The notes beneath the pieces are model-generated. The model saw only the letters and a list, made by a program, of their open reading frames with translations. It was not told the origin of the DNA and did not search any database. A program made the translations under genes and the position numbers. From Alphaproteobacteria bacterium (GTDB lineage Bacteria; Pseudomonadota; Alphaproteobacteria; Bin95): DNA of 64,000 nt. The stretch is taken from contig OZ219787.1 in NCBI GenBank assembly GCA_964291285.2, forward strand, positions 1,792,001-1,856,000. The letters run 5' to 3'. Below, one piece after another: positions 38,776-54,646 of the stretch. The number at the start of each line of letters is the position of its first letter. Positions within the stretch are counted from its first letter, which is position 1.

Positions 38776-41700
38776 ATGAGCAACATGGACGATGGAGGCG
38801 GCTCCGGCGGGACCGGAACGCCTGTGCAGCGGGGCCCGATCGCCTGGTTTGCGGCAAACCCCGTCGCCGCGAATCTGCTGATGGTCTTCCTGATCGTCGC
38901 CGGCGCAATCGCCGGTTCGCGGCTCGCGGTCCAAGACCTCCCGGAGTTCGACCAGCGGCGCGTCTCCATCATGATTCCGATGCCCGGCGCCTCGCCGACA
39001 GAAGTGCACGAGGACGTCGTCCGCCGGGTTGAGGAAGCGATTATCGGCATATCCGGCGTCAGCCGGGTGGTCAGCACGGCGAAGGAAGGCATCGGCCTGA
39101 TCGATGTGGAACTGGAAGTCTTTGCCGACAACGCAATGGTGCTGAACGATGTCACACGTGCCATCGACGCCTTGGAGAATTTCCCGCCGCCAAACGCCGA
39201 ACCGCCCGAAATCAAGCTGGTCCGGTGGAGAAACGATGTCGTAACGATCGCGGTGTCTTCCGGTGCGGTGACCGAAAACCAGCTTCGGCTTGCGGCAGAA
39301 AGCCTGCGCGACTCGCTGCTGGCCCTACCGACCGTGTCCCACATAAGGGTGGAAGGCACGCGCGACCGGGAGATCACGATAGAGCTGAACGAGGAGGACC
39401 TGCGGCGAAACCGGCTCCAGATATCTGACGTCAGGCAGGCAATCAGTCGGGATTCTCTCAACCTGACCTTCGGAGAGCTGCGGACCGAAGCAGGCGGCGT
39501 TGTGCTGCAGGTGGTCGCGAAGCGGGAGCATAGTGCGGAGTTCAAGGATATACCGCTCATTACGCGGCTCGACGGAACGGTGGTGACGCTCGGCGATGTC
39601 GCCAGGATTCGCGATGGTTTCGTCGATGAGAATGTTCTGACGGAAACGGCCGGCGTGCCGGCGGTATTCCTGCGGATAACCGCGACCGGCAGGCAATCGA
39701 CCAAGGAAATGAGGAACACTGTCGTGGAGTTCCTTGGCGGTTACAGCCCGCCCGCGCATGTTTCGGTCAATATCTGGGACGACAAGGTCGAGGCGACCGT
39801 CGAGCGGTTGACACGGATCTTCGCCAATTCCGCGATCGGCGCGGCGCTGGTGTTCATCTGCCTGGTCGCGGTGCTCGACCTCCGGGTGGCGTTCTGGACG
39901 ACTTTCGGCATTCCTCTGGCCTTCATCGGGTCGCTGATTTTCTTCGCCCCGGCCGGCCTGACGCTGAATATGGGCACCCTGTTCGCGTTCTTCCTGATGG
40001 TCGGCATTGTGGTGGATGATGCCGTTGTCGTCGGGGAGAGCATCGCCACGGAACGGGCCCGGACCGGCTCGGCGCTGGCCGCGGCGATTTCGGGCGCGAG
40101 GGCTGTGGTCGGGCCGCTGGTCGTCGGCGCGGCCACGACGCTGATCGCGCTGGTTCCCCTACTGTTCGTCACCGAGGGCGGATGGCAGATCATGAGAATG
40201 ATTCCCTATGTGGCGCTGTTTGTGCTCATCATATCGCTGGTGGAGGCGTTCCTCATCCTGCCGGCGCATTTGGCGTATGACAGGCCCTGGAGCGCGCCGC
40301 CGCTGAGCGGCTGGCAGGGGGCAGTGCGCGGCTGGCTCGACGGCGTCCGCGACAGCGTGGTGGCTGCAACCGTTTCCTGGTCGGTGCGCCATGTCTGGAT
40401 GGCGGTTGGAATCGGCATCCTCGTCGTTGTCTGCGCAGTGCTGCTTGTGCGCTACCACGAGGTACGGGTCCTGTTCGCGGAGGAGAGGACGGACATTAGC
40501 AACTCGGTCCAGGCGGAGTTGCGCCTGCCTGCCGGATCGCCGTTCGAGGCGACGCTTGCCGCCGCCGAGCGCTTCAGGGATGCGGCCAAGGGTGTGAACG
40601 ACGATCTGGGGGGGGCAGCGATCAAGTCTGTCAGCATGGTCGTCGGGAAGATCCTGTCCACTTGGCCCAGGGATGACGCGGTCAGGGGCGAACATGTGGC
40701 GACGGTTAAGGCGCACCTTTACCGCCGTCCCGTCCGCGATGCCGCGCCCGCCGAAGTGGAGCGCGCGTGGCGGGCCCGCATCGGCGATATTTCGAGCTTG
40801 GAACATGTGGAATATGTGTTGACCCGAGGCAAGATCAGGCCGAACCTAGCCTATTCGATCCGACATAATGATCGGGAGTTGCTGCAGGGGGCCGCGCAAA
40901 AACTGCGCTCGGCGCTCGCTGCGATACCCGGCGTGTACGGTGTTTACGACAGTCTCTCGCCCGGCAAGCGTCAGCTCGAGATAGAAGTGACGCCGGCCGG
41001 CAAGGCGGCCGGGCTTTCGCCGGCGCTGCTGGGAGCGCAATTGCGCGCCCGGCTTCATGGCGCCGAAGCGCAGCGCATCCAGCGTGGCCGCGAGGAAATC
41101 GAGGTCGTCGTCAGATATCCCTCGGAACGCCGCCGGAGCCTGAAGGAACTGGCCGGGATGCGCATAGACCGGCCCGGCGGGGGCGAGATTCCGCTCTTCC
41201 TGGCGGCCACGCTCACGGAAAAACAGGAGTTGGCCGAACTGACGCGGATCGACGGCAAGCCGGCGGTCTTTATTGAGGCGAGAGCCGACGCCGCAGTCAT
41301 TACGCCGATCCAGGCCCGCAGGCTTATAGAGGACGGCGTCGTGCGGGAACTGCGCGCCGCGCATCCCGGCATCGCGGTGGAGAGGGACGGCGGCGCTCGA
41401 AACGAACGGCGGGTGCTGGAAACGCTGGCTACCCTGGTGCCGCTTGCGCTGATCGCCATGTATGCGGTCATGGCGGCGTTCCTGCGCAGCTACTGGAAAC
41501 CGCTGGTCGCCGCAGCCGGAATCCCGGCCGCCTTCGCCGGGGCGGTGCTGATGCACTGGATACTCGGCTGGGACTTCAACTTCATGTCGATCTTCGGGAT
41601 CGTCGCCGTCTCAGGCGTCGTCGTGAACGATGCGCTGGTGCTGCTCGACCGCTACAACATCATCCGCCGGGAGAACGACGCCCTGCCTGCGATCGCCGCC

Positions 41701-41916
41701 GCGGCGGCCGCCACGCGCCACCGCTTCCGCGCCGTGCTGCTCACCAGCCTGACGACGGTGCTCGGCCTCTCGCCCCTGCTCTACGAGCGCAGCGACGCCC
41801 TGCTCTTCCTGGTGCCGTTCGTGGCAAGCATGCTGGGCGGGCTCGTGCTGGCGGGCATGTTCGTCCTGTTCCTCCTGCCGGCGATGGTCATGATCGCCGA
41901 CGGCAGGCATGAATAG
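38776..41916 (+). CDS. RND efflux permease (AcrB/AcrD/AcrF family)
   Basis: 1046 aa; GIVVDDAVVVGE, GVVVNDALVL, RFRAVLLTSLTT. Confidence 0.95.
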   Translation: MSNMDDGGGSGGTGTPVQRGPIAWFAANPVAANLLMVFLIVAGAIAGSRLAVQDLPEFDQRRVSIMIPMPGASPTEVHEDVVRRVEEAIIGISGVSRVVSTAKEGIGLIDVELEVFADNAMVLNDVTRAIDALENFPPPNAEPPEIKLVRWRNDVVTIAVSSGAVTENQLRLAAESLRDSLLALPTVSHIRVEGTRDREITIELNEEDLRRNRLQISDVRQAISRDSLNLTFGELRTEAGGVVLQVVAKREHSAEFKDIPLITRLDGTVVTLGDVARIRDGFVDENVLTETAGVPAVFLRITATGRQSTKEMRNTVVEFLGGYSPPAHVSVNIWDDKVEATVERLTRIFANSAIGAALVFICLVAVLDLRVAFWTTFGIPLAFIGSLIFFAPAGLTLNMGTLFAFFLMVGIVVDDAVVVGESIATERARTGSALAAAISGARAVVGPLVVGAATTLIALVPLLFVTEGGWQIMRMIPYVALFVLIISLVEAFLILPAHLAYDRPWSAPPLSGWQGAVRGWLDGVRDSVVAATVSWSVRHVWMAVGIGILVVVCAVLLVRYHEVRVLFAEERTDISNSVQAELRLPAGSPFEATLAAAERFRDAAKGVNDDLGGAAIKSVSMVVGKILSTWPRDDAVRGEHVATVKAHLYRRPVRDAAPAEVERAWRARIGDISSLEHVEYVLTRGKIRPNLAYSIRHNDRELLQGAAQKLRSALAAIPGVYGVYDSLSPGKRQLEIEVTPAGKAAGLSPALLGAQLRARLHGAEAQRIQRGREEIEVVVRYPSERRRSLKELAGMRIDRPGGGEIPLFLAATLTEKQELAELTRIDGKPAVFIEARADAAVITPIQARRLIEDGVVRELRAAHPGIAVERDGGARNERRVLETLATLVPLALIAMYAVMAAFLRSYWKPLVAAAGIPAAFAGAVLMHWILGWDFNFMSIFGIVAVSGVVVNDALVLLDRYNIIRRENDALPAIAAAAAATRHRFRAVLLTSLTTVLGLSPLLYERSDALLFLVPFVASMLGGLVLAGMFVLFLLPAMVMIADGRHE

Positions 41917-41968
41917 GGCAGAACAGGCCGACCTCGGGGGGCATAACAAGGTTTGGCGAAACGCCGTT

Positions 41969-42063
41969 GAGGCGTGTGCGCTGTTCGGCAGTCCTTTCTG
42001 AGCAAGGGGCGCCGAATGGGATGAGATTTTTCTTACCCCATCGGCGTGTTTGATTTCTGCCGG
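41969..42063 (+). mobile_element. Degenerate left end of the same DDE IS family
   Basis: GAGGCGTGTGCGCTGTT...CTTTCTGAGCAAGG...ATTTTTCTTACCCC matches the 35671 left end. Confidence 0.75.
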
Positions 42064-42264
42064 ATCCGGCGCGCCGCCCAGTGCGGTTTGCGCGATTTCC
42101 ACTATCGGGACATCGTGCGCACGGAGGATGAGGCGGGCGAGTGGATCGAGGTCCATGACGGGCCGAAGGTCCGGCGGCGCTATCCGTTCAGCTATCCTGC
42201 GCAAGCCTGTAGAGACGTGGACAAGAGGGGTGCCGATTCTCACCAAAGGAGCCGGCGATTCTCA

Positions 42265-42354
42265 GTGCGCCGTGGAAAGGCGCGTTATCCCAGTGGGTGC
42301 GAATCCCGCCCAACCCTTGTCGCTTCGGTTGGAAGCAACCAGAGCGGCTTACGG
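42265..42354 (+). ncRNA. 5' fragment of a group II intron
   Basis: Begins GTGCG; GTGCGCC-GTGGAAA-GGCGCG hairpin, GGGTGCGAATCCC and GGAAGCAACC resemble domain I; no RT ORF or domain V present. Confidence 0.6.
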
Positions 42355-42427
42355 GTAAAAGTTCCGTCGGGCCGTGGAAGTCCTCCGGCTGATTGAACAG
42401 GAAGCCCGGCACCAGAGAGGATTTTAC

Positions 42428-42524
42428 CCTAAATCCGGCAGTTGAGGATGGCGGGGCCTTGCCGAATTCCTTGTAGTCTGCGGGTATGAGCGGCTTTTCA
42501 GGGGCCGAAGAGGCTCACCCTTTG
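42428..42524 (+). mobile_element. Truncated IS1380 copy (left end only)
   Basis: CCTAAATCCGGCAGTTGAGGATGG...GAGGCTCACCCTTTG near-identical to the reverse complement of 50112-50208. Confidence 0.9.
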
Positions 42525-42762
42525 CCGTGAAACAGATTCGGTCGAGGGGCGCGCGGAGCGGTTCCAACGCCGTGTTGCGGCGTTGGCGGGTATGGCCGGG
42601 ATCGGCTCGGCGGAGACGAGCGGTGGACTTCCCCGATGTGGCCCTTGGCGGTCCCGCGTTGCCGTCTGGCGTGTTTCAGGGGGCTCAGGCGGCGTTGAGT
42701 TCTGGCGCGTTGACGGGTGCGATGTAGCCGTATCGTCGGAGCATGCGGATCCATCGGGGGGC
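42525..42762 (-). mobile_element. IS110-family remnant (transposase C-terminus and right end)
   Basis: APRWIRMLRRYGYIAPVNAPELNAA* (42685-42762) resembles IS110 C-termini; end TTTCACGG-CAAA joins the IS1380 CAAA. Confidence 0.6.
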
Positions 42763-43383
42763 GGGTGTACGTCTGATTTGCCGTGAAAATGGTTGGGGAT
42801 CGGGCGCACAAAACCCCTCCCCGCCAAAGCACTGCTCCCGAGGCGTCCGATACTCGCCATCTGCGGCGCCCGTCTTGCGGACCGTGACCGGTAGGCAACC
42901 CCGTAAAAGCCCGAAGTCCCGCCCGCGCGGCCGGCACCTGTTTTCATGATACGGGGTGGCCGACCCGCCCGGCAATGGACGTTTTGCCGTGAAAATGGTT
43001 GGGGATCGGGCGCACAAAAACCCCACCCCGCCAAAGCACTGCTCCCGAGGCGTCCGATACTCGCCATCTGCGGCGCCCGTCTTGCGGACCGTGACCGGTA
43101 GGCAACCCCGTAAAAGCCCGAAGTCCCGCCCGCGCGGCCGGCACCTGTTTTCATGATACGGGGTGGCCGATCCGCCCGGCAATGGACGTTTTGTGAGATT
43201 CATGCTCTTGCGCTGGCGTGCCGTTCCCAGAAGTCGTCGAAGCGGTTGCTTTCGACGGCGCAGCGCAGGGCGATGATGGCGTTGGCGCCGTCGACGGTCC
43301 AGCGCATGCCGCCTTGCTTGAGGCGGGCGCCGACGATGTTCTTGCAGCCTCCCTCGACCACGCCGGAGGCAACGCACAGGCCC
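42763..43383 (-). mobile_element. ISKra4-family right-end remnant interrupted by the mini-element dimer
   Basis: GLCVASGVVEGGCKNIVGARLKQGGMRWTVDGANAIIALR...FDDFW (43200-43383); removing 42781-43193 restores GGGTGTACGTCTGATTTGTGAGATTCA. Confidence 0.75.
42781..43193 (-). mobile_element. Head-to-tail dimer of a ~207-bp non-coding mini-element
   Basis: Units 42781-42986 and 42987-43193 differ at about 3 positions; TTTG (CAAA) at every junction. Confidence 0.9.
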
Positions 43384-44078
43384 ACCGCCGTCGTTTCGTC
43401 CGGGAACACCCTGTTCCAGTCCCCGAAGGGCTGGTTTGCGGTGATCGGCAGGGATCGCCGCTCGTAGCGCGCCGAGATGAGTTCGAAGAGGACGCTGGTC
43501 TCGGCCCGGTCCTTCTGGACATAGGCGATGTCGTCGAGGATCGGCAGGTGGTAGCGGTCGAGCCTGGCCAGCATGGCTTCCAGAGCGAGCTCGCGGCGCG
43601 CGACCTGCATGCGCTGCACCAGATCGGTGGTGCGGGTGAAGAAGACACGGTATCCGTTCTCGACCGGGGCAAGGCCGATGGCGGACGCCAGATGGCTCTT
43701 GCCGACGCCTGGCGGTCCGAAGATGAGGCAGTTGGCGCCCTGGTCGAGCCAGGCGTCGCCGACGGCCAGGGCATTGACCTGTGCCTTCGAGATCATCGGC
43801 ACGACGCTGAAGTCGAAGGCGTCGAGGGTCTTGCCCGGGATCGGCCTGGCTTGCCTGAGATGGCGTTCGATGCGCCTGCGGTCGCGCTCGGCGAGCTCGT
43901 GCTCGACGAGGGTTGCGAGGAAGCGAGCGGCGGTCCATCCCTCGGCGTCGGCCCTCTTGGCGAAGCTCTGCCAGAGCTGGTTGATCGTCGGCAGGCGCAG
44001 ATCGGTGAGCATCGGGGAGAGCTTGATGGCGTCGACCTTGTTGGGATCGGCGGCGATCCTGTCCCGGTTGTCGGTCAT
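43384..44078 (-). pseudogene. istB: IS21 helper ATPase IstB, C-terminally truncated and fused in frame to ISKra4 tail
   Basis: GPPGVGKSHLA, LDDIAYV, LFELISARYER, ITANQPF. Confidence 0.85.
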
Positions 44079-44494
44079 ACCACGCCTCCCGCGTCGAGCA
44101 GGGTGCCATAGCCGGCAAGGAGCGGCCTGGCGATGCGGATGCTGGGCATGCTCCCCGGGTGCGGTGCGAAGCGCGCCTTGAGCTTGTCGAGATCGGGGAG
44201 CCGGTCGGCATTGAGGGCCTTGTCGATGGAGTGGGCGAGATCGGCCTCGCAGTTCTCCTCGTGGGCGAGCGCCAGGAGGGCGACCGCGAGCCGGCAGGCC
44301 CGGCGCTCGCCCACCCGCTCCAGGGCCGTCTCGAAGCAGCGCCGGCAGGCCTCGCGCCGGAACAGCGCGTCGCGATAGACCGGGTTCAGGAGCGCCATCG
44401 GCTTCTTCTTCAGCGAGTGGATGACGTGGCGGTAGTTGACGACATGAGCGTTGGGGCCGGTAGCGCCGGCGCGTCCGCGCGGCAGGGTGAGCAT
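44075..44494 (-). pseudogene. istA: IS21 transposase IstA C-terminal remnant
   Basis: TLPRGR...HVVNYRHVIHSLKKKPMALL...YRDALF; ATGA overlap with istB. Confidence 0.85.
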
Positions 44495-44518
44495 ATGGGT
44501 ACTACCAACGGCGCTGGT

Positions 44519-45578
44519 TCAGAACCCATTGGCCCATTTTCGGGTTCCGATGGAGGCGATGCGTTCTGGTTGTGAGACGAGATTGTTCCAGGCCTGGCAG
44601 CAGTGATCGAGTATGTCGTCGTAGTTCTGGAAGACGCGGTTCGAGAGCCGGTTTTCGCGCATGAACTGCCAGACATTCTCGACAGGATTGAGCTCGGGGG
44701 ACCGGGGCGGGAGCGGCATGAGGGTTATGTTGTCGGGCACTTGGAGGGTCGAGGAGGTGTGCCATCCGGCCCGGTCGAGCATGACGAGGGCATGGGCTCC
44801 GGGTTCAACGGTGAGGGCGATCCCGGCGAGGTGGGCGTTGAGTGCCTCCGTGTTGGCGTGGGGCATGACGAGGCCGGCGGCCTTGCCCTTATGCGGGCAT
44901 ATGGCGCCGAAGATGTAGGCCGGGATGGTTCTCTGGTCCTTGGGGGCTGACGGTCGGGTGCCGCGTTTCGCCCATCGCCGGGTGATCTTGTTCTTCTGCC
45001 CGACGCGCGCCTCGTCCTGCCACCAGACTTCGACCTCGACGCCGTCACCGAGTGCAGCGCGGATGTCCCTCAGGCGGTCGGGGAAGTTTTTTTGAACGCC
45101 GCCAACGCAGCTTCGTCCCGGGCATAGTGGCGCGGGCGCGCAGAGAGCCTGGCGTAGCCCATGCGACGCAACTCCTGTCCGACCGTCGTCACCCCCAGCG
45201 ACACGCCGAACTGCTCGCTGAGCCATGCCGCCAGGTCGCAGCGCCGCCACCGCACCACGCCGTGGATCGCCGGGTCCGGACCACTCTCCACTACCGCCGC
45301 CAGGGCCGCGCGCTGTTCCTCGCTCAGTTTGTAAGCCGGACCCGGAGCCTTGCGGTTCACCAGGCCCGCCGGACCCGCCACGTTGAAGCGCAGCACCCAG
45401 TCCCGAATGATCTGCAGCCCCACACCCGCTACCGCGCCGCGTCCAAACGACGATGACCGTCGTAGATCAGCGCCAGCGCCAGAAGACGACGGCTCTGTCC
45501 CCCGTCCCGGCTCCGCTTCGCAAGACCACGCAAGGCAGCCGCATCGAAATCCCCCCGCAACGGGATCGCCGCTCCCAT
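44519..45578 (-). pseudogene. IS630 transposase (orfA/orfB) with extra frameshift near 45435
   Basis: WWQDEARVGQK, LDRAGWH, SPELNPVENVW; A7 slippage site at ~45086-45093 between orfA and orfB. Confidence 0.88.
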
Positions 45579-48512
45579 CACAAACGTCCATTGCCGGGCG
45601 GGTCGGCCACCCCGTATCATGAAAACAGGTGCCGGCCGCGCGGGCGGGACTTCGGGCTTGTACGGGGTTGCCTACCGGTCACGGTCCGCAAGACGGGCGC
45701 CGCAGATGGCGAGTATCGGACGCCTCGATCGTGTCCCGAGCCGTGGTGTAAGAGCCTGGCGCCCGTGGCGGTGTCCGGCGGGTAGGGCCGGTAGGCTCAG
45801 GCTGCCACGGCGGGCAGCTTGACGGTTGCATTGTCGCTCACGGGAGCGATGGATTCCAGCGTTACGTATCTGGCTCTCTGGACGGCCCATTCGTCGTTCT
45901 GCTCGAGCAGGATGGCACCGATCAGGCGGGTGATGGCGTTCTCGTTGGGGAAGATGCCGACGGTGTTGGTGCGCCGCTTGATCTCGCCATGGAGGCGTTC
46001 GAGCGGGTTTGTGGAGTGCAGCTTGGCGCGATGCGCGGCCGGGAAGGTCATGTAGGCGAGAACATCGTGCTCGGCCTCGTCCATGATGGCGGCGAGCTTC
46101 GGCGCCTTGGGCCTGAGCTGGTCGGCGACCTGGCGCCACTGGGCGGAGGCGCTGTCTGCATCCTCCTGGGCGAAGGCGGTGGTGACGAAGGCGGAGACGA
46201 CGCGCCGGCCCTGCTTGCCGGCATGGGCGAGCAGGTTGCGCATGAAATGCACGCGGCATCTCTGCCATGTGGCGCCGAGGATGCGGGTCGCGGCGGCCTT
46301 CAGGCCCTTGTGGTCGTCGGAGATCACCAGCTTGACGCCGCGCAGGCCGCGCCGGGCGAGCGAGCGCAGGAAGTCGGTCCAGAAGGTCTCGGCCTCGGAC
46401 GCGCCGATCGCCATGCCGAGCACCTCGCGCCGGCCCTGGTCGTTGACCGCCACCGCGATGGTGACCGCGACCGAGACGATGCGCCCGGCCTCGCGCATCT
46501 TCACATAGGTCGCGTCCAGCCACAGATACGGCCAGTCGCCCTCCAGCGGCCGGTCGAGGAAGTCGCGGATCTTGTCGTCGATCTCGCCGCACAGCCTGGA
46601 CACCTGGCTCTTGGAGATGCCCGACATGCCCATCGCCTGCACCAGGTCGTCGACCGAGCGGGTGGATACGCCCTTGATGTAGGCCTCCTGGATCACCGCC
46701 GTCAGCGCCTTCTCCGCCATCCGCCGCGGCTCAAGGAAGCCCGGGAAGTAGCTCCCCTTGCGCAGCTTCGGGATCTTCAGCTCGACCGTGCCGGCGCGCG
46801 TCTCCCAGACCCGGTCGCGGTAGCCGTTGCGGTGCGTGATCCGGTCCGGCGAACGCTCGCCGTGCCCGGCGCCCGCAAGGCCCTCAACCTCAGACTTCCT
46901 GACCTCGTGACGATGTTTGTTGCGGGCGGCGTTCTGGGAACTTTTTGAGTTCGGTTCATTTTTCGTCTGTTTCGGCTGATTTTCGCTGGCTGCCGTGTCC
47001 AGGTTCGGGTATTTTAATTTGACACTGGATACGAGATTTCAACCATGTCGATTACCCTTCCCCTGAGCCCTCCGGAGGCGGTTCCGATCGGCAGCAGTTG
47101 TTTCGCCATTCTGATTTCGGACGACAGCTTCACCTACTTCTCCAACCTCGTTCCCTTTGACAGCCACGCCGCCGATGACCGCGCGGCCATGCTGTTGCGG
47201 ATCGGCCGCCTGGCTGCGATCAGCGCGGTCTCGCGGCAGGATCTGGCCGACGCTTTCGGTGTCTCGCGTGCAACGGTCCAGCGCGCACGACGGCGCTACC
47301 TGGCCGAGGGCGAAGCGGAGTTTCTGAAGCCCCGGCGCGGTCGGGGACCTTCGGTGTTCACGCCGGAGCTGGCGGAGAAAGCGACGGCGTTGCTGGAAGG
47401 GGGCCTGAGCGGCTCTGCGGTGGCCCGAGTTCTCGGCGTGTCAGCGCCGTCGGTCAACAAGTGGCGGCGGCAGGGGGTGATCGGCAACGCGGAGGCGTGT
47501 CGGGAGCGCGGCAGCGCGGCAGTGGCGGTGCCGCCTGACGCGGGTGGGGCGCCCGAGGGCAGTGTCGATGACGAGAGTGCCGGTGCCGCCGGGCCGGCGA
47601 CGGCAGCGGGGCTGGAGGCGCAGACGGATCGCAGCGCGCGCGACCGGCGGGACCGGCAGGCGCCGATGGGGCGCGCGACTTGCGATGTCCGGGCTCGGGT
47701 GTTGGCCAGCTGCGGGCAGGCGGGACCGGTCGAACCGCAGTTCACCGCCGCCGCCCGCGGCGTGCGCTTTGGCGGCGTTCTCGCCGCCCTGCCGGCCCTG
47801 CTGAAGGAAGGCCTGCTCTGCGAGACCGGCCTCCTGCCGTTGCTGTCGAAGGGCTACTACGGCCTGCCCACGATCCTGCTCTTCCTGGCCTTCATGACCC
47901 TGGCGCGGGTGCGCAACCCCGAGAGCCTGCGCTACCAGGCACCGGGCGAATGGGGTGCGGTTCTCGGTCTCGACCGCTGCCCCGAGGTCAAGACGCTACG
48001 GCGCAAGATCGGGCTCATGGCCAACGACGAAGCCAGCGTGCAGGCGTGGCAGCTCGCTCTTGCGAGACGCTGGCAGGAGGAGGAGCCCGAGCTCTGGGCG
48101 ACGCTGGCCGTTGACGGGCACGTCAAGGTCTACGCCGGCCGCAAGGGGCGCCTGCCCAAAAACACTTCGTCTCGCGCGAGAAGCTGTGCCTGCCGGCGAG
48201 CACCAGCTACTGGATCAACGCCTTGGGCGGCAAGCCCCTGCTGTGCCTGCACAAGCCGCTGGACCCGAAGATGGTCGCCGCGATCGAATCCGACGTGGTG
48301 CCGGCGTTGCAGGCGCTCGGGATCGTCGACGCCGGGACAGCGGACCTGACCGCCGGGCAGCCCGGCCAGCCCGTGCTCACACTGGTCTTCGACCGCGAGG
48401 GCTGGAGCCCGGAGCTGTTTCGCCGGCTGGCCAGGCGCGGCATTGCCTGCCTGACCTGGCACAAGAACTTCAGGGGCGGGGACTGGCCGGCCGAGGACTT
48501 CAGTGCGATGAT

Positions 48513-50208
48513 CCTAAATCCGGCAGTTGACAGGCTTGATCGCTGTCTCGGGGTAGTGTGAACGGCCGGATTTGGGCGTGGATTTCAGCACGTGGTCGCG
48601 GCCCTGGGTGGCGGCAGCCAGGGTTGACGCCCCGGTTCGCGGCCATGGAGGTATTTCCTGAGCGCCTCGGCGAGGATGCGGCGCCAGCGATCCCCGGCGC
48701 TCAACTGCTCCGCAGTTTGCGTCAGCGACCGGAAGAAGCCGGCGATCCGGCGCAGCGCCGCCATCACCGTCTTGCGACGCCCGTGATGGGAGGTCACCGT
48801 CAGCCGGGTCTGGCCGGCGTGGTGGGTCTGGCGGGCAACCCCGTGCAGGAGCAGCGGCCGGCTGGTGATCGCCTCGCGGTGATGGTCGGGGTCGGCGAGG
48901 CGCACGAACAGGCTCCACCAGTTGTAGATGAGCGCGACCAGCCGGGCCATGTGCCGGCAGCGCGTCAGGTCGCGCGTGGTGAAGCCGCCCCAACCCCACT
49001 GGTTCTTCAACTCGTCGAAGCCGTTCTCCGCGTCCGCCCGGTCGCGGTAGAGCTGGGCCAGCGAGCGTATCTCCAGGTCCAGCGAGGTCGCCAGCACCGC
49101 GAACTCCCACACCCCGGTGCCGGGCTGCGCCTCGGTCCAGAACAGCTCGCCCTGGGCCTTGTCGCCACGCGTCAGCGCCAGCGTCGCAGGAAGCCGCCGG
49201 CGCAGCACCACAACCCGGCGCGTCCGGCTCCAGCCCTGCAGACGCAGATCGGCCCCGATCCCCGACCAGCCCTGGCCTGCATCCTCCCAGCCGTCCCGCG
49301 CCATCAGCCGCTCGGCAAGCCGGCGCGCCCCCTTCGTCAGGCGCAGCTTGAACAGATAGTCCGGACCCGCAGCCTCGCACGACGCCATGTTGGCCTCGCT
49401 GCCCCAGTCCTTGTCGCCCCGCACCAGACGCGGCCAGCGATCCCGCCCAAGACGGTCGAGCAACGCCCACAAGGACGGCGCCGCGCGCCTCGAATGGTGA
49501 TGGTTGCCCGGCGCCACCTCGACATCCAGAACAAGCCGCGTGCCCGCCATCAGGAACGCATGGCAGGCGTGCGAGGGGCGGCCCGGCTTCTTCGGGTTGT
49601 AGCTCACAACCGCTCCCTCCTGACGACCGTAAAGCGCCTTGATCGTCGTGTCGCAGTCCAGAACCCACGGCTCCCTCAGCAGCGGACGGACCACCTCGTC
49701 CAGATGGCCCTGAAGCCACGATGTGCCGACATCCGCACCGATCCGCTCCAGACCGCGCCGCACCGAATCCTCGCTCGCAACCTTGTCCATACCCAGCAGC
49801 GCAGGGTTCACCCCGTCGCCGCGCAGCGACGTGATGTGCGCATAGCGGGACTGCCCCGCCAGAACCGACAGAAGAACCGTCCCCAGGACATCCCGCTTCG
49901 ACGGCGCGTTCGGGCTCGTGTAGTGCAGCGGGCAGTCCGCAACCAAAGCGTCAAAGCGACCGCTTACCTTCAGGTATTCCGAGAAAAACGCCAGATGCCC
50001 CAGCGGCGTCACCGCCGCATCAGGGTCCCATTCCACATGAACCGCGCCGCCGAAGGTGTCCACCTTCACCGACGCTCGGGCGACATCCCGCACAGCGCCA
50101 GGATAATCACCCAAAGGGTGAGCCTCTTCGGCCCCTGAAAAGCCGCTCATACCCGCAGACTACAAGGGATTCGGCAAGGCCAAGCCATCCTCAACTGCCG
50201 GATTTAGG
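48513..50208 (-). mobile_element. IS1380-family element, intact
   Basis: 18-bp TIR CCTAAATCCGGCAGTTGA; 5-bp TSD ATGAT (48508, 50209). Confidence 0.92.
48585..50150 (-). CDS. IS1380-family transposase
   Basis: LDCDTTIKALYGRQEGA, VRGDKDWG, YRDRADAENGFDELK. Confidence 0.9.
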   Translation of the reverse strand: MSGFSGAEEAHPLGDYPGAVRDVARASVKVDTFGGAVHVEWDPDAAVTPLGHLAFFSEYLKVSGRFDALVADCPLHYTSPNAPSKRDVLGTVLLSVLAGQSRYAHITSLRGDGVNPALLGMDKVASEDSVRRGLERIGADVGTSWLQGHLDEVVRPLLREPWVLDCDTTIKALYGRQEGAVVSYNPKKPGRPSHACHAFLMAGTRLVLDVEVAPGNHHHSRRAAPSLWALLDRLGRDRWPRLVRGDKDWGSEANMASCEAAGPDYLFKLRLTKGARRLAERLMARDGWEDAGQGWSGIGADLRLQGWSRTRRVVVLRRRLPATLALTRGDKAQGELFWTEAQPGTGVWEFAVLATSLDLEIRSLAQLYRDRADAENGFDELKNQWGWGGFTTRDLTRCRHMARLVALIYNWWSLFVRLADPDHHREAITSRPLLLHGVARQTHHAGQTRLTVTSHHGRRKTVMAALRRIAGFFRSLTQTAEQLSAGDRWRRILAEALRKYLHGREPGRQPWLPPPRAATTC

Positions 50209-51602
50209 ATGATCGTTCCCATTCACGGACCCGCGGCGAACGCCAGCGCCACCATGCTGCTGGCCGAGAAGCCGGTGACGTTGAAGAACGGCTTCAGGGT
50301 GCGCCAGATCCGCCGCCTGCTCGACAACGGCCGTCAGGTTCCGCTGGTCACCACCGATCCGCACAAGCCGGTGGCGGAGGCCGCAGGCGCCTTGTTCTCG
50401 CGCTGGTCGCAGGAAAACTTCTTCAAATACATGCGCGACGAGTTCAATCTCGACGCCCTGCCGACCCACGAGATCGAGCCTCTCGCTGCCGATACCATGG
50501 TCGTCAGCCCGCTGCGGCGGGCCTACGACAAGGCAATCCGCCGCCTCGACCACCAGCTTGGCCGCCTGCGCAACCGCATCGCCGACGCCGCCCACAGGAA
50601 GCAGCCGACGGGCGAACTCAAGAGGGAACTCAGGGACCTCGAGGGCGGCCGTGAGATTGTCAGATCCAGCCGCAGGGAGGTGCCCACGCACTGCCGGGCC
50701 GGCGACCTCGACGAAGCCGGACAGCTCAATGCCTTGCCCTCACGCGAGCGCCTCCTACTCGACATCATCCGCATGATCGCCTACCGCGCTGAAACCCGCT
50801 TGATGCTTCCCGTCATGCAGGCGCAGGGCCACAAGCCCCACCCACGGAAACTGCTTCAGGCACTCTTCACCGCCGATGCCGACATCCTGCCGGACCCTGC
50901 CAACGGCGTCCTGCGGGTCCGCATTCTCGGCCTCGCAAATGACGCCTGCGACCGCCAGATCAAGCCTCTTCTGGCCGAACTCAACGCCACCGAAACGCAC
51001 TTCCCCGGCAACCGTATGCGCATGGTCTACGAGGTCGGCATAACCCCAAAATCCGCGCGCACCGGTGCCAAACAAAATTAGCAGAGGTCAGGAAGTCTGA
51101 ACCTCAAGCGCCATCAGACGCGCGGCCGTGAACCCGATCATCTCGCGAAGCAGATCGGCGTCGGAACTCTTCTCCAACAGCGCCCGCAGGGTCATCATGT
51201 CGGTGGTGGTCATCGTGGTACTCCTCCGGTCGGATGGACTGTGGAAGCCCAACCCTACCGGCACCGCGATGGTCATCCGCTATGGATAAGTGGCCCGCCG
51301 CCGCCAGACTCCAGACGGTCGCGGCGGCGGGCCACTTACCCACAGCTACCGATGGTGGCTCCAGCTCCTACACCACGCCTGGGGGCACGACCGACGCCTC
51401 GGGAGCAGTGCTTTGGCGGGGTGGGGTTTTTGTGCGCCCGATCCCCAACCATTTTCACGGCAAAACGTCCAATTCAACCCGCCCACCTTGAATCAGAAAC
51501 CGAACCGGAAGGGAAGCCTCTTCGTATCCGTTCGGGTTCCGGGGGATGAGGATTGGGTTATCCGCTTGTCGGCATTTTCACACCGGGGCGACGGTTGTGC
51601 TT

Positions 51603-52484
51603 CTACCGATTGAGGGTGCGTTGCCAGTCTTTTCGCAGTGTGCGGAGCCAGATGTCCTTTTTCGGCTGGTCTCGTTTGTTGTGCCTGTCGTAGCGTCCCC
51701 GGCCCTGGGTGGTCCCGACGCGGGTCCAGCCCGATGCGCGGTATACGGCACCGGTGTAGCGGGGCGTTTCGACGAAGGTCTCGATGAGCACCGGCGTGAT
51801 GTTGTAGCGCCCGGTCCAGTCGATGGGCAGGCGGCGGCGCACGATGGCGAGGATGTGCGAGCCGAGGTTGGGGATCTCGATCCAGGGCAGGATCAGGAAG
51901 CGCGGGTTGTCGACGACGAGAGGAAGGTTCTTTTCGCGCAGTTCGGGCGTCCATCCGATGAAGCGGTCGCGCGGGGCGAGCTTCCATGCGGCGGTGGAGA
52001 AGCCGAGCATGGCGACGGGCCAGCCGTTGCGGTCGTGGACGGCATAGCGCATCTGGGCGCCGACCAGTGTCTTGTGTCCGAGATAGTGGTAGCGGGCGAT
52101 GAACTCGTTCCAGAGCCTGCCTTCGCGGGTGCTGTGCACGACGGTGCGGAAGTCGAGCGGGCGGACCTCGTCGAGGGTCGTGGGCGCCGGGAACAGCGGC
52201 GGTTCGGTGTCGGGTCCGAACTGGACCGGCCTGGGCCGGTGCTGCCGCCCCCTCGGCGGCGGCAGCTCGATGAGCCCGTCCTTGTGCATGGCGAGCATGG
52301 CGACACGGGCCATCATGTCCTTCAGTCCGCCGTCGGGCTTGAGCCAGCCGATGCGCCGGCAGAACTCGATCGACAGGGCGCGGCGGGAGAGCGGGGCGGG
52401 ATCGGCGATCAGGGCACGCAGCAGCGCCATTTCATCTTCGGTGAAGTCGCGCCCGTAATAGCGACACTCGACCGCGCCGGTCAT
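51603..52484 (-). CDS. DUF4338 (DruA-like) domain protein
   Basis: WNEFIARYHYLG, LAPRDRFIGW, NPRFLILPW, ETFVE...YRASGW...GTTQGRGR. Confidence 0.82.
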   Translation of the reverse strand: MTGAVECRYYGRDFTEDEMALLRALIADPAPLSRRALSIEFCRRIGWLKPDGGLKDMMARVAMLAMHKDGLIELPPPRGRQHRPRPVQFGPDTEPPLFPAPTTLDEVRPLDFRTVVHSTREGRLWNEFIARYHYLGHKTLVGAQMRYAVHDRNGWPVAMLGFSTAAWKLAPRDRFIGWTPELREKNLPLVVDNPRFLILPWIEIPNLGSHILAIVRRRLPIDWTGRYNITPVLIETFVETPRYTGAVYRASGWTRVGTTQGRGRYDRHNKRDQPKKDIWLRTLRKDWQRTLNR

Positions 52485-54646
52485 CCCGCCGCCGCGAGTT
52501 CGCGCCGGCGCGCCTCGCTCATCGACCACGGCAGCCAGGGCGAGAGGTCTTCCGGCGGCTCGCCGCCGTTCTCCGCGCACGCGGTCAGCCATTCACCGAG
52601 CCAGCGCCGGACGTCGATGCCGTTGATCGCCAGCGTGCCGGCCACCGAGTACATCGTTGCCGTGAACCCGGCGCCTTTCTCGCTGTCGGAGCCGAACGAG
52701 AGCCGTCGCCCGATGACCGCGAAGCGCAGGGAGAGTTCGCCGCGGTTGTTGTCCATGGGCACGAACGGCTTGTCGACGAAGACGCACAGCCCCTCGCGGT
52801 GCTTGAGGAGCGAGCGCAGCGGCCTGGCCCTGCGCGCCCTGTCCGTCAGCCCGGCCAGTTCCGCTTCGGCGGCCGCGAACAGCTCGTCGACCGCCTTCTT
52901 CAGCCTGGCGTGCGCGACGTCGAACGCCGGCGTCTGGCGTTCGAGAGGGTGAGCGGGGTCGTAATGCTCCAGCCGCGCCTCGTTGAGCCGGTAGATCTCC
53001 GCGATCCGCTCGATCCATCTCTGGCACCAGCGCCTGAGCCGCACCCGCCCGGCCGCGCCGTCGATGAACGAGCGCCTTTGGTGCGCCCAGCACCATTGCA
53101 GGATCACCTTGCCGGCGAGTTCGCGGGCCAGCTTTCTGTAGGCGCTGAACCGGTCGCAGACCAGAACCACGATGCCCTGTGTCGAACCGAACAGCTTCAT
53201 CGCGACCTCGGCGCTGCGCGAGGGATCGATGTGGTAATAGACCGCGTCCGGGCTCACCGAGGTCCACAGCCAGGCGCGGCTCGACCGGCCTTTCTCGCGC
53301 CAGGCCTGAACGCGCCAGGATGTTTCGTCGGCATGGCGCAGGGCCGCGGTGTTCTGGTGCGCAAGGATCGCCTCGGCCAGCGGCTCGAACAGCGGCACGA
53401 AGCGCTTGATGCTGTCGGCCAGGGTGCCCGGCGAGATCGTCAGCCCCATGTCGGCCAGCCAGGCCGCGACCCGATGCAGCGGCCGGCAGCAGACGAACCG
53501 TTCGTAGAGCATGCACGTCCAGACGCTGATCCCGTAAGGCGTGGTCTCGAACAGTCGCACCGCCGGCGGCGCGGTCACCTCCCGCGGCGCGGAGGCGCAG
53601 TCGCAAGCCCGGCGCCAGCGCGACCGGACGATGGTGCGCTCGCAGGCCTCGACATCGATCTCGAAGAGGGTGGTGCGCCGCTCGCCGTTGGCGACATAGG
53701 GCTTGCCGCAACGCGGGCAGATCCGCGCATCTTCCGGCGGGTCGCGCGTCTCCTTCTTCTTCCTGAGCCCGGGGCGCCGGGTGCGGCCGTGCCCGGCGGT
53801 GCCGCGCTGCTGGCCGCGCTCGCGCCCGGTGCCCGGCTTCTTCTGCCGCTCGCTCCTGCTGCCGTAGAGCGCCTTCGACAGGACGCTGCGGGTCGAGCGC
53901 AGCTTGTCGAGGTCGCCTTCCAGCTTCTCGACCCGCGCGGCCAGCGCGGCATTCTCGCCCTTCAGATCCCGCACCTCGGCGCGCAGCCCGGCATTCTTCT
54001 CCCGCAGCGACCCGATCAGCTCCGTGGCCCGCACGACCGCCGCCCGCAGCCGGTCGTTGCGCGCGCGCAGCCACGCGATCGTGCCCTCCCCGGCCTTCAC
54101 CAGCCGCCTGGCCGCGGCGAGATGCCGGTCGAACCGCCTGCGCAGAGATTCGGCCACGCGCTCGCCCTCGCGGTGTACCTTCGCGAGCCGCGAGCGCTCC
54201 CGGTCGATGTCCTGCTTCAACCAGTTGATCTCGTCCCGGTGGCGCGCCTCGACCCGCTCCCGGTGCTCGTGAGACCGGCGCAACGAGAGGTAAAGACCGG
54301 CGATCTCGTCGTCCTGATACTCGACCCTGCGCTCCAACGCCTTCATGGCCCGCGACGCGGTCCTGGTTACGGCCAACTTGAGCTTGAACCGGCAAGTCTC
54401 AAGCTGCCTCTCCAGAGAACGCACGCGCGTACAGGCGTCCCTCTCCGACCAGCGCAGTTCCTCGCGGCGCAACTCCGCCACGCGTGCGCGACCCCGTTCC
54501 TCCTCGATCCGCGCCTCTGCCTCTTCAAGCACAGACGCCCAGTCGAGCGGCTCGCACGCCGGCATCACCATGGGAGGCGACCACAAGGTGTCGCCCCCCT
54601 CGGCCAGCGTCAGGTCGGTGCAGAAATCCGCGTCGAAAACCGCCAT
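52481..54646 (-). CDS. tnpC: IS66 transposase with long N-terminal coiled coil
   Basis: YGSRSE, CPRCG, HADETSW, CDRFSAY, CWAHQRR, PMDNNRGE. Confidence 0.92.
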   Translation of the reverse strand: MAVFDADFCTDLTLAEGGDTLWSPPMVMPACEPLDWASVLEEAEARIEEERGRARVAELRREELRWSERDACTRVRSLERQLETCRFKLKLAVTRTASRAMKALERRVEYQDDEIAGLYLSLRRSHEHRERVEARHRDEINWLKQDIDRERSRLAKVHREGERVAESLRRRFDRHLAAARRLVKAGEGTIAWLRARNDRLRAAVVRATELIGSLREKNAGLRAEVRDLKGENAALAARVEKLEGDLDKLRSTRSVLSKALYGSRSERQKKPGTGRERGQQRGTAGHGRTRRPGLRKKKETRDPPEDARICPRCGKPYVANGERRTTLFEIDVEACERTIVRSRWRRACDCASAPREVTAPPAVRLFETTPYGISVWTCMLYERFVCCRPLHRVAAWLADMGLTISPGTLADSIKRFVPLFEPLAEAILAHQNTAALRHADETSWRVQAWREKGRSSRAWLWTSVSPDAVYYHIDPSRSAEVAMKLFGSTQGIVVLVCDRFSAYRKLARELAGKVILQWCWAHQRRSFIDGAAGRVRLRRWCQRWIERIAEIYRLNEARLEHYDPAHPLERQTPAFDVAHARLKKAVDELFAAAEAELAGLTDRARRARPLRSLLKHREGLCVFVDKPFVPMDNNRGELSLRFAVIGRRLSFGSDSEKGAGFTATMYSVAGTLAINGIDVRRWLGEWLTACAENGGEPPEDLSPWLPWSMSEARRRELAAAG

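Follow-up and report, generated by a model that had tools for sequence, protein, structure and literature searches.

We have analyzed a 64,000-nt stretch of an alphaproteobacterial genome (G000, 6.1 Mb, 68% G+C, in five contigs; the stretch, hereafter the window, is G000:C3:1792001-1856000) that contains a tandemly repeated unit of 207 bases. The unit is a real mobile element, because it is present at high copy number, has 13 left junctions and occupies sites that exist in filled and empty versions in three families of insertion sequences (IS). To judge from profile (nhmmer) and alignment z-score matches, it consists of ~52 bp from the start of the left end of an IS110-family element, named here IS110-Y, joined to the last ~155 bp of its non-coding right end. 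The origin that we consider probable is an internal deletion of IS110-Y, giving a non-autonomous derivative that would need both the recombinase and the bridge RNA in trans. An earlier note on this DNA had proposed a non-autonomous element of the IS110 family, and this proposal is supported by the termini shared with IS110-Y and by an insertion that is directed to a C followed by a run of A and takes place without duplication.

In the window, Tandem Repeats Finder detected one array at 42777-43193, with a period of 207, 2.0 copies and 98% matches, and the repeat search added a third copy, inverted and in two pieces (45582-45727 and 51393-51471). Over the complete genome BLAST gave 40 hits, far beyond chance, corresponding to 31 arrays or fragments at 29 loci (two pairs of fragments among the 31 are single copies broken by other insertions). 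This way, the dimer and the split, inverted third copy of the earlier note were recovered, and the BLASTN search for further copies that it had suggested was positive. Nine of the arrays are tandem dimers, eight of them located inside copies of one 2.5-kb IS (named IS-A), near its right end. IS-A was found with the dimer in eight copies, with a monomer in one and empty in three, while IS-B had one filled and at least six empty sites, and IS-C one filled and three empty. In all three families the empty site was C-A(n), with n = 4, 3 and 5, and the filled site C-AAAA-unit-CACGGC-A(n-1), i.e., a single insertion adds three A. No target duplication was found in the three comparisons of filled and empty sites; variable duplications had been named beforehand as an observation that would speak against an IS110 origin. 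The n-1 pattern was also present in the right halves of three further targets, and each of the 13 independent left junctions of the genome was a C followed by two to four A. The asymmetry of the junctions, with four A at the left and one A fewer than the empty site at the right, could be seen at the window dimer (42780-43193) and at C1:515238, C4:507047 and C4:501353. Another site, G000 C3:1519993-1520060, carries a partial, diverged and inverted copy of the unit right end placed head-to-head with a left end, and the unit there is itself broken by an insertion of ~1.7 kb.

The two copies of the dimer run, in element orientation (the minus strand of the window), from AAAC.. to ..TTTTCACGGC, and copy a is preceded by one extra A (43192) and by the flanking C (43193). 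The open reading frames (ORFs) overlapping the dimer (42498-43154 and 42685-44211) had no Pfam match, in agreement with the earlier statement that the unit has no credible ORF. The repeat search of the window reported no terminal inverted repeat in the unit either, as had been noted; units and parents do have a sub-terminal inverted repeat, which is interrupted and whose two arms correspond to left-end positions ~29-47 and to the final ~12 nt of the right end. Its left arm reads as the right terminus in reverse complement, except for ~5 additional central bases, and its sequence differs on both arms between parents (TGAAACAG) and units (TGAAAA). The unit therefore lacks both features of a classical MITE (miniature inverted-repeat transposable element), namely terminal inverted repeats and target-site duplication.

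The putative parent, IS110-Y, has 1,769 bp, with a left non-coding region of 355 nt, a gene for a protein of 417 amino acids (aa) and a right non-coding region of ~165 nt. The protein matches PF01548 and PF02371 (DEDD/Transposase_20) as well as NF033542 (262 bits, cut-off 140). The unit shares with this element the termini C|AAA(A)-C-NNN-CAT.G ... TTTCACGGC|AAA; those of IS110-Y itself read C|AAA(A)-C-NNN-CATGG ... TGTTTCACGGC|AAA, and relatives at ~61% protein identity retain ..TTCACGGC|AAA-like right ends. Intact 1,769-bp copies with the same termini were found in related metagenome-assembled genomes (MAGs), one of which holds 36 copies (110 relatives were found and 78 loci kept). Thus the full-length IS110 parent with the same ends that the earlier note had recommended looking for does exist, although in the genome of the window it is represented only by broken pieces, and tblastn with an intact relative detected no complete copy there. 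At C2:1199943-1201141 we found the left end and the N-terminal 290 aa, the gene being cut after 290 codons by another IS; this is the fourteenth PF01548 match of the genome (C2:1200311), with the left end ~330 nt before the start codon and the first 12 nt equal to those of one unit subfamily. The C-terminal 203 codons with a right end finishing in TTTCACGGC are at C4:270936-271712, with an identical piece on C5, and scraps of the right end are at C1:836453-836749 and at 42521-42763 of the window. The last of these is the IS110 remnant that had been described beside the dimer, with its 12 terminal nucleotides (42521-42532) truly in common with the unit, although the adjacent 42428-42524 belongs to the end of a DDE_Tnp_1_4 IS.

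When plasmids were searched by tblastn with the IS110-Y transposase, only relatives below 60% identity were retrieved, annotated as 'IS110 family transposase', and no named IS. The genome also has an IS110 element in 13 copies (~1.14 kb; G000 loci L031-L043, e.g., C1:248452), which was rejected as the parent given that its ends (..CTCTCC) are unrelated to those of the unit. Its reading frame extends up to the terminus of the element, so that its length (355 to 495 aa) depends on the flank, and several copies are located in similar GC-rich palindromic sequences resembling repetitive extragenic palindromic (REP) elements.

The two parts of the unit were assigned by means of a profile built from an alignment of 18 units from seven genomes. 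With nhmmer, unit positions 1-56 aligned to parent left-end positions 1-56, and unit positions 50-100 to the right-end non-coding region of the parent. For the alignments of the body, the shared 12-nt terminus was removed before scoring. Unit bodies then matched the right-end non-coding regions of the parents with z values of up to 9.9; two units of one MAG gave z values of 5-10 against the right-end regions of four parents, and the body of the window unit 3.3-3.9 against those of three. Against parent left-end positions 60-215 there was no homology (z from -1.6 to 2.3). Hence the unit combines shared termini, independent insertions and a parent-derived interior with the lack of a recombinase gene of its own, as is expected of a non-autonomous IS110 derivative. 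The claim of the earlier note that it has kept its guide (bridge/seek) RNA is not supported, since the body is the right-end region and the guide-like segments are situated in the left end that was lost.

These segments, which appear to behave like bridge-RNA guides, fall within left-end positions ~60-260 of the parent, outside the unit. The one at ~136-172 has the sense of the left target plus the A-run and varies between lineages as the targets do. Thus, ATGACAAAAC accompanies the target logo gAC|AAAA (36 copies), AGATATAAAC the target ..CATAT|AAA, AGATCTAAAC the target ..CATCT|AAA and ACGCCAAAAC the target ..GCC/CCC|AAAA (in three full-length copies). Where the guide has three A, the left junction has three as well, and the same correspondence was seen for four. 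The sense of the right end plus the A-run is that of a second segment, at ~227-238 (CGCGGCAAA..). In IS621, it is with the bottom strand that the left target guide (LTG) and the left donor guide (LDG) pair, and the donor loop comes after the target loop (PMC11208160, in the portion of the paper available to us), and the sense and order of our two segments fit that LTG-then-LDG definition. On the other side of the comparison, the body of the unit had three matches of at least 7 nt to its own donor junction vs. 2.6 in shuffled sequences, i.e., no excess complementarity; guide segments that match target and donor are present in the parent left end.

The insertion sites of the unit were also compared with the resident guide. 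Position -1 of the target was C in all 13 unit left junctions, and position -2 was C in 8 of 13, vs. 21% of the C-AAA sites of the genome (binomial P ~0.002). By contrast, among 31 independent full-length insertions of the lineage with the ATGAC guide, position -2 was A in 26 (4 of 13 in the units; Fisher p = 0.0011) and never C (0/31 vs. 8/13; Fisher p = 7e-6); these counts at -2 were tallied by hand from the insertion lists.

Units with the same termini, 70-86% identity and 196-222 nt were found in 4 of the 40 other genomes searched, all four belonging to the same genus (4 of 16 genomes within the genus and 0 of 24 outside), and also in three of the five MAG genomes that hold IS110-Y. In one of the four genomes of the genus (G010; loci L123, L127, L129, L131 and L132) all five units are located between CATGAC motifs, in the arrangement ..CATGAC|unit|AAAACATGACA.., a target much more specific than that of the genome of the window. 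The ATGAC guide, which belongs to another lineage, would be suited to such a CATGAC site.

According to our preferred explanation, a full-length IS110-Y present in the same cell would supply the DEDD recombinase and the bridge RNA, and the unit would move only then. The unit retains the two termini that would form the donor site (right end CACGGC, A-run and left end C-NNN-CAT), having lost the transposase gene and left-end positions ~60-355 together with the guide-like segments; as these segments are outside the unit, recombinase and bridge RNA would most likely both be needed in trans. The recombinase-RNA complex would take the unit ends as donor and a C + A-run as target, inserting the unit without duplication. 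Dimers would form by insertion of a new copy at the junction of one already in place, owing to the similarity of the right-end junction (..CGGC + A-run) to the target, and the same product would be obtained by homologous recombination involving a circle. The partner being broken in this genome, the copies that it contains are probably immobile now.

Tandem copies are not exclusive to the unit. In the MAG with 36 copies of IS110-Y, three left flanks were the right end of another copy and four right flanks the left end of another copy, with three or four A at the inner junctions. At locus L045 a full-length IS110-Y abuts a unit, with a second unit 30 nt further, and another dimer in the same genome has three A at the junction, while the two independent dimers of the genome of the window have four. 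All these tandem junctions are of the form right end-A-run-left end, which is the form expected of a circle junction, as the earlier note had pointed out for the dimer, and they can serve as a proxy for a circle only. Tandem growth at IS110 loci has been attributed, in the parts available to us of two recent preprints (10.64898/2026.08.14.744561 and 10.64898/2026.08.31.748434), to half-matches involving the bridge RNA. Four A would be expected if insertion took place at the right-end junction of a resident copy (..CGGC + A-run), and three if it took place at a left junction or if a circle was integrated by homologous recombination; the numbers of A at the outer junctions fit these expectations only in part. 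There were also signs of shuffling, in that C1:795049, C4:462049 and the copy at 45582 of the window have the same left flank and different right flanks, and C1:795049 and C2:383187 the same right flank. Shuffled flanks are as expected from recombination between copies, or of dimer junctions with distant sites.

Several observations weigh against this explanation. A search of the four unit-bearing genomes of the genus for the IS110-Y transposase gave nothing at E <= 1e-30, so that either the partner has been lost or another enzyme acts on the units. The numbers of A are not fully explained, given that single insertions add three A and both dimers have four at the inner junction, and no conservative strand-exchange scheme that we could derive accounts at once for the n-1 rule and for the four A at the dimer junction. 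The 5-nt match of the unit left targets to the guide ACGCC was not enriched over random C-AAA sites (mean 2.0 vs. 2.17, P ~0.8); only positions -1 and -2 fit this guide, position -3 being mostly C where the guide has G. The co-variation of guide and target comprises four lineages, two of which have all their copies in one repeated target family and are not independent. In addition, units and parents alike conserve the right-end non-coding region, which is situated behind the promoter-like motif described below and could have a function of its own, as RNA or in protein binding. Finally, we infer the mobilization in trans, as well as the guide assignment and the origin of the dimers.

The possibility that the unit is an 'RNA-only' element, with its own promoter and guide (bridge/seek) RNA and only the recombinase acting in trans, finds an argument in the promoter-like sequence TTGCCG-18-TATCAT, which occurs once per unit (two sites vs. 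0.1 expected from shuffles) and which the earlier note had correctly located. Across genomes, at 70-86% identity, the -10 part of this motif and several blocks of the body are conserved, although the -35 part is not. Besides, the seekRNA of IS1111-type elements is encoded in downstream non-coding regions, according to the accessible part of the description (PMC11187229). However, the body of the unit comes from the right-end non-coding region, whereas the segments that match target and donor and vary with the lineage are in the left end of the parent, and the body has no excess of matches to its own donor junction over shuffled sequences. Nor did the 'structured tract' reported previously find thermodynamic support. 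Folds of the single sequence gave z = +1.05 and +0.99 for the two strands, and at +1.05 as many as 172 of 200 shuffles folded at least as well. In RNAalifold, the covariation term for the 18 units was only -0.72 kcal/mol. In the structure derived this way 13 pairs change on both sides, vs. 7.6 +/- 1.8 in shuffles (a value reached by 3 of 500), with the proviso that the structure was derived from the same sequences; the two-sided changes affect five of the seven pairs of one hairpin, located upstream of the -10 motif, and 3 of 21 in the long helix. Rfam 15 (40000-53000, E <= 1) gave five weak matches, none near its gathering score, in a collection not confirmed to include a bridge-RNA model, and the only one on the unit was bxd_2 (20.6 bits vs. 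a gathering score of 80). Of 20 public runs, four were compared with the sequence, all in the form of contigs, and the single RNA run (X10) had no contig over 42774-43181, bearing in mind that contigs cannot show the absence of a transcript. Taken together, we consider an own guide RNA unlikely. It is only slightly easier to accept that the body is a passenger module like that of MITEPpu9/ssr9, encoding a small regulatory RNA (acting, e.g., on transposase expression) to which the ends merely provide transport. The conserved right-end region and the promoter-like motif directly upstream of the body would agree with this, as would the precedent of ISPpu9, with tandem copies and minicircles in the text available (PMC12288879), but the body has no evident complementarity to the parent left end (control z near 0) and the support for a structure is weak.

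Much less probable are the explanations that dispense with IS110. Elements of the single-strand 'peel and paste' IS200/IS605 type (PATE) and rolling-circle elements of the IS91 type also have no inverted repeats or duplications and can give tandem copies. The insertion of the unit 3' of a short motif without duplication would agree with such an origin, and the one-base offset of the junctions resembles fixed points of single-strand cleavage. However, the Y1 transposase (PF01797) had no match in a genome that is 100% complete, in a search whose control was positive in 6 of 14 known genomes and that did not extend to IS91-type genes, and both termini and ~200 nt are common to the unit and an IS110-family element, which makes this origin very improbable. 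The least credible of all is an immobile unit, either a structural or REP-like repeat or a landing pad for other IS, spread by the duplication of larger segments. Many copies are indeed inside other IS and have multiplied with them (nine through IS-A), and the flanks are partly shuffled, but this is contradicted by the sites that exist, exactly, both filled and empty in three IS families and by the 13 different left flanks, all ending in C + A-run. A more speculative extension of our explanation, to which we would give only slightly more credit than to the passenger module, is that the right-end region (~155 nt, present in every mini-element and parent behind the left-end promoter-like motif) is a functional second RNA or a cis-acting recombination module. 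Tandem dimers might then act as chromosomal 'ready-made donor sites', which the bridge-RNA complex could recombine with distant C + A-run sites because the inner junction equals the circle junction. If true, the shuffled flanks would be explained as RNA-guided genome rearrangement driven by the mini-elements.

The surroundings of the repeat in the window are an IS graveyard, with the IstB of an IS21 element, IS630 fragments, a Mutator-family gene and a split Transposase_29 gene (Table 1). The gene next to the dimer, previously ascribed to ISKra4, turned out to be this IstB, and the IS that carries it has no second copy in the genome. The third copy of the unit is broken after unit position 148 by an insertion of 5.66 kb, with a 9-bp duplication (unit positions 140-148) on both sides and ends that match those of multi-copy IS256-type elements. 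Directly upstream of the IS cluster there is a gene for an RND (resistance-nodulation-division) transporter of the AcrB/AcrD/AcrF family (38776-41916, plus strand; 1046 aa, PF00873, E 6e-122). A 329-aa ORF matching the Druantia DruA family (PF14236, E 2e-36) is found at 51603-52592 on the minus strand, adjoined by an ORF for an IS66-family transposase (52481-54646).

Table 1. Positions in the window of the unit copies and of the elements that surround them.
Feature	Position	Strand	Remarks
Left-end scrap of DDE_Tnp_1_4 IS	42428-42524	plus	97 nt, not IS110
3' remnant of IS110-Y	42521-42763	minus	Last ~25 codons, right-end non-coding region, terminus TTTCACGGC; tblastn aa 393-417, 96%
Tandem dimer	42780-43192	minus	Direct copies a and b
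Unit copy b	42780-42984	minus	205 nt; right copy in element orientation, then AAA, then IS21 end
Promoter-like TTGCCG-18-TATCAT, copy b	42946-42975	minus	
Dimer junction	42982-42985	minus	Four A between copy a right end (CACGGC) and copy b left end (CGTCC...)
Unit copy a	42986-43191	minus	206 nt, AAAC...CACGGC; left copy in element orientation
Promoter-like TTGCCG-18-TATCAT, copy a	43153-43182	minus	Left-end positions ~11-40
IstB (IS21 family)	43200-44078	minus	Dimer ~15 bp within its outer end
Third copy, unit positions 3-148	45582-45727	plus	
Insertion splitting third copy	45728-51392		5.66 kb, IS256-type ends, encloses further IS genes
Mutator-family gene	45797-46720		Inside 5.66-kb insertion
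Transposase_29 gene	47045-48349 and 50209-51081		Inside 5.66-kb insertion, interrupted by DDE_Tnp_1_4 IS
DDE_Tnp_1_4 IS	48585-50208		Intact copy
Third copy, unit positions 140-207	51393-51461	plus	

IS110 elements are the natural source of bridge recombinases, and the units described here suggest that such an element, reduced to its ends, can persist and increase in number as a parasite (~206 nt) of the full-length version, reaching 29 loci in one genome and being present in genomes that no longer hold the enzyme. They would provide a natural map of what is needed in cis (~52 bp at the left and ~155 bp at the right), while the parent lineages form a series in which the left-end segment changes together with the target, and the many natural tandem junctions bear on the positions of the strand cuts. 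For annotation, units like these are invisible to gene-based IS finders and inflate the repeat content and the rearrangement potential of the genome.

With respect to the IS621/IS110 group, as presented in the part available of its description (PMC11208160), IS110-Y has in common the PF01548 + PF02371 recombinase, the long left-end non-coding region, the order of the putative LTG and LDG and the lack of duplication. The core is an A-run in IS110-Y and CT in IS621. IS110-Y differs also in its 165-nt right non-coding region and in the interrupted inverted repeat of ~12 nt in sub-terminal position, which are among the features given for the IS1111 group. In the accessible text on ISEc11 and ISEc21 (PMC11187229), artificial mini-IS made of 50 bp of the left end and 46 bp of the right end around a cargo were moved by transposase and seekRNA in trans. 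The unit resembles these constructs in having short ends in cis, with protein and RNA to be provided in trans, and its left end of ~52 bp is nearly the same. However, the mini-IS are laboratory constructs and the right end of the natural unit, ~155 bp, is far above the 46 bp that sufficed there. The expanded IS110 loci with tandem non-coding units that have been surveyed (10.64898/2026.08.14.744561) show a similar tandem accumulation beside resident copies, although that survey required a recombinase gene in the locus and, in the text available, describes no dispersed copies lacking the recombinase.

The only natural IS110-type element without recombinase that we found in the literature, whose supplementary files may hold more, is MITEPpu9 (the ssr9 module) of ISPpu9, an IS110-family element of Pseudomonas putida KT2440. 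It was described in 2025 and proposed to move in trans (PMC12288879, whose available part is also the source for what follows). Like the unit, MITEPpu9 is short, has no transposase, is bounded by the left- and right-end boxes of an IS110-family IS and occurs by itself as well as directly downstream of the full-length IS, with tandem duplicates in some strains. On the other hand, MITEPpu9 is defined by ssr9, the gene of an abundant small RNA, and its minicircles were detected, whereas the unit is known here from its sequence. The target is also different, AG in REP sequences for MITEPpu9 and C + A-run for the unit. In contrast to what the available text gives for MITEPpu9, a single internal deletion is enough to obtain the unit from its parent, its copies are far more numerous (29 loci) and it is found in genomes without the parent. 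By this comparison the unit would be a further member of the MITEPpu9-like class, a parasite of a parasite that had been reported once, in 2025.

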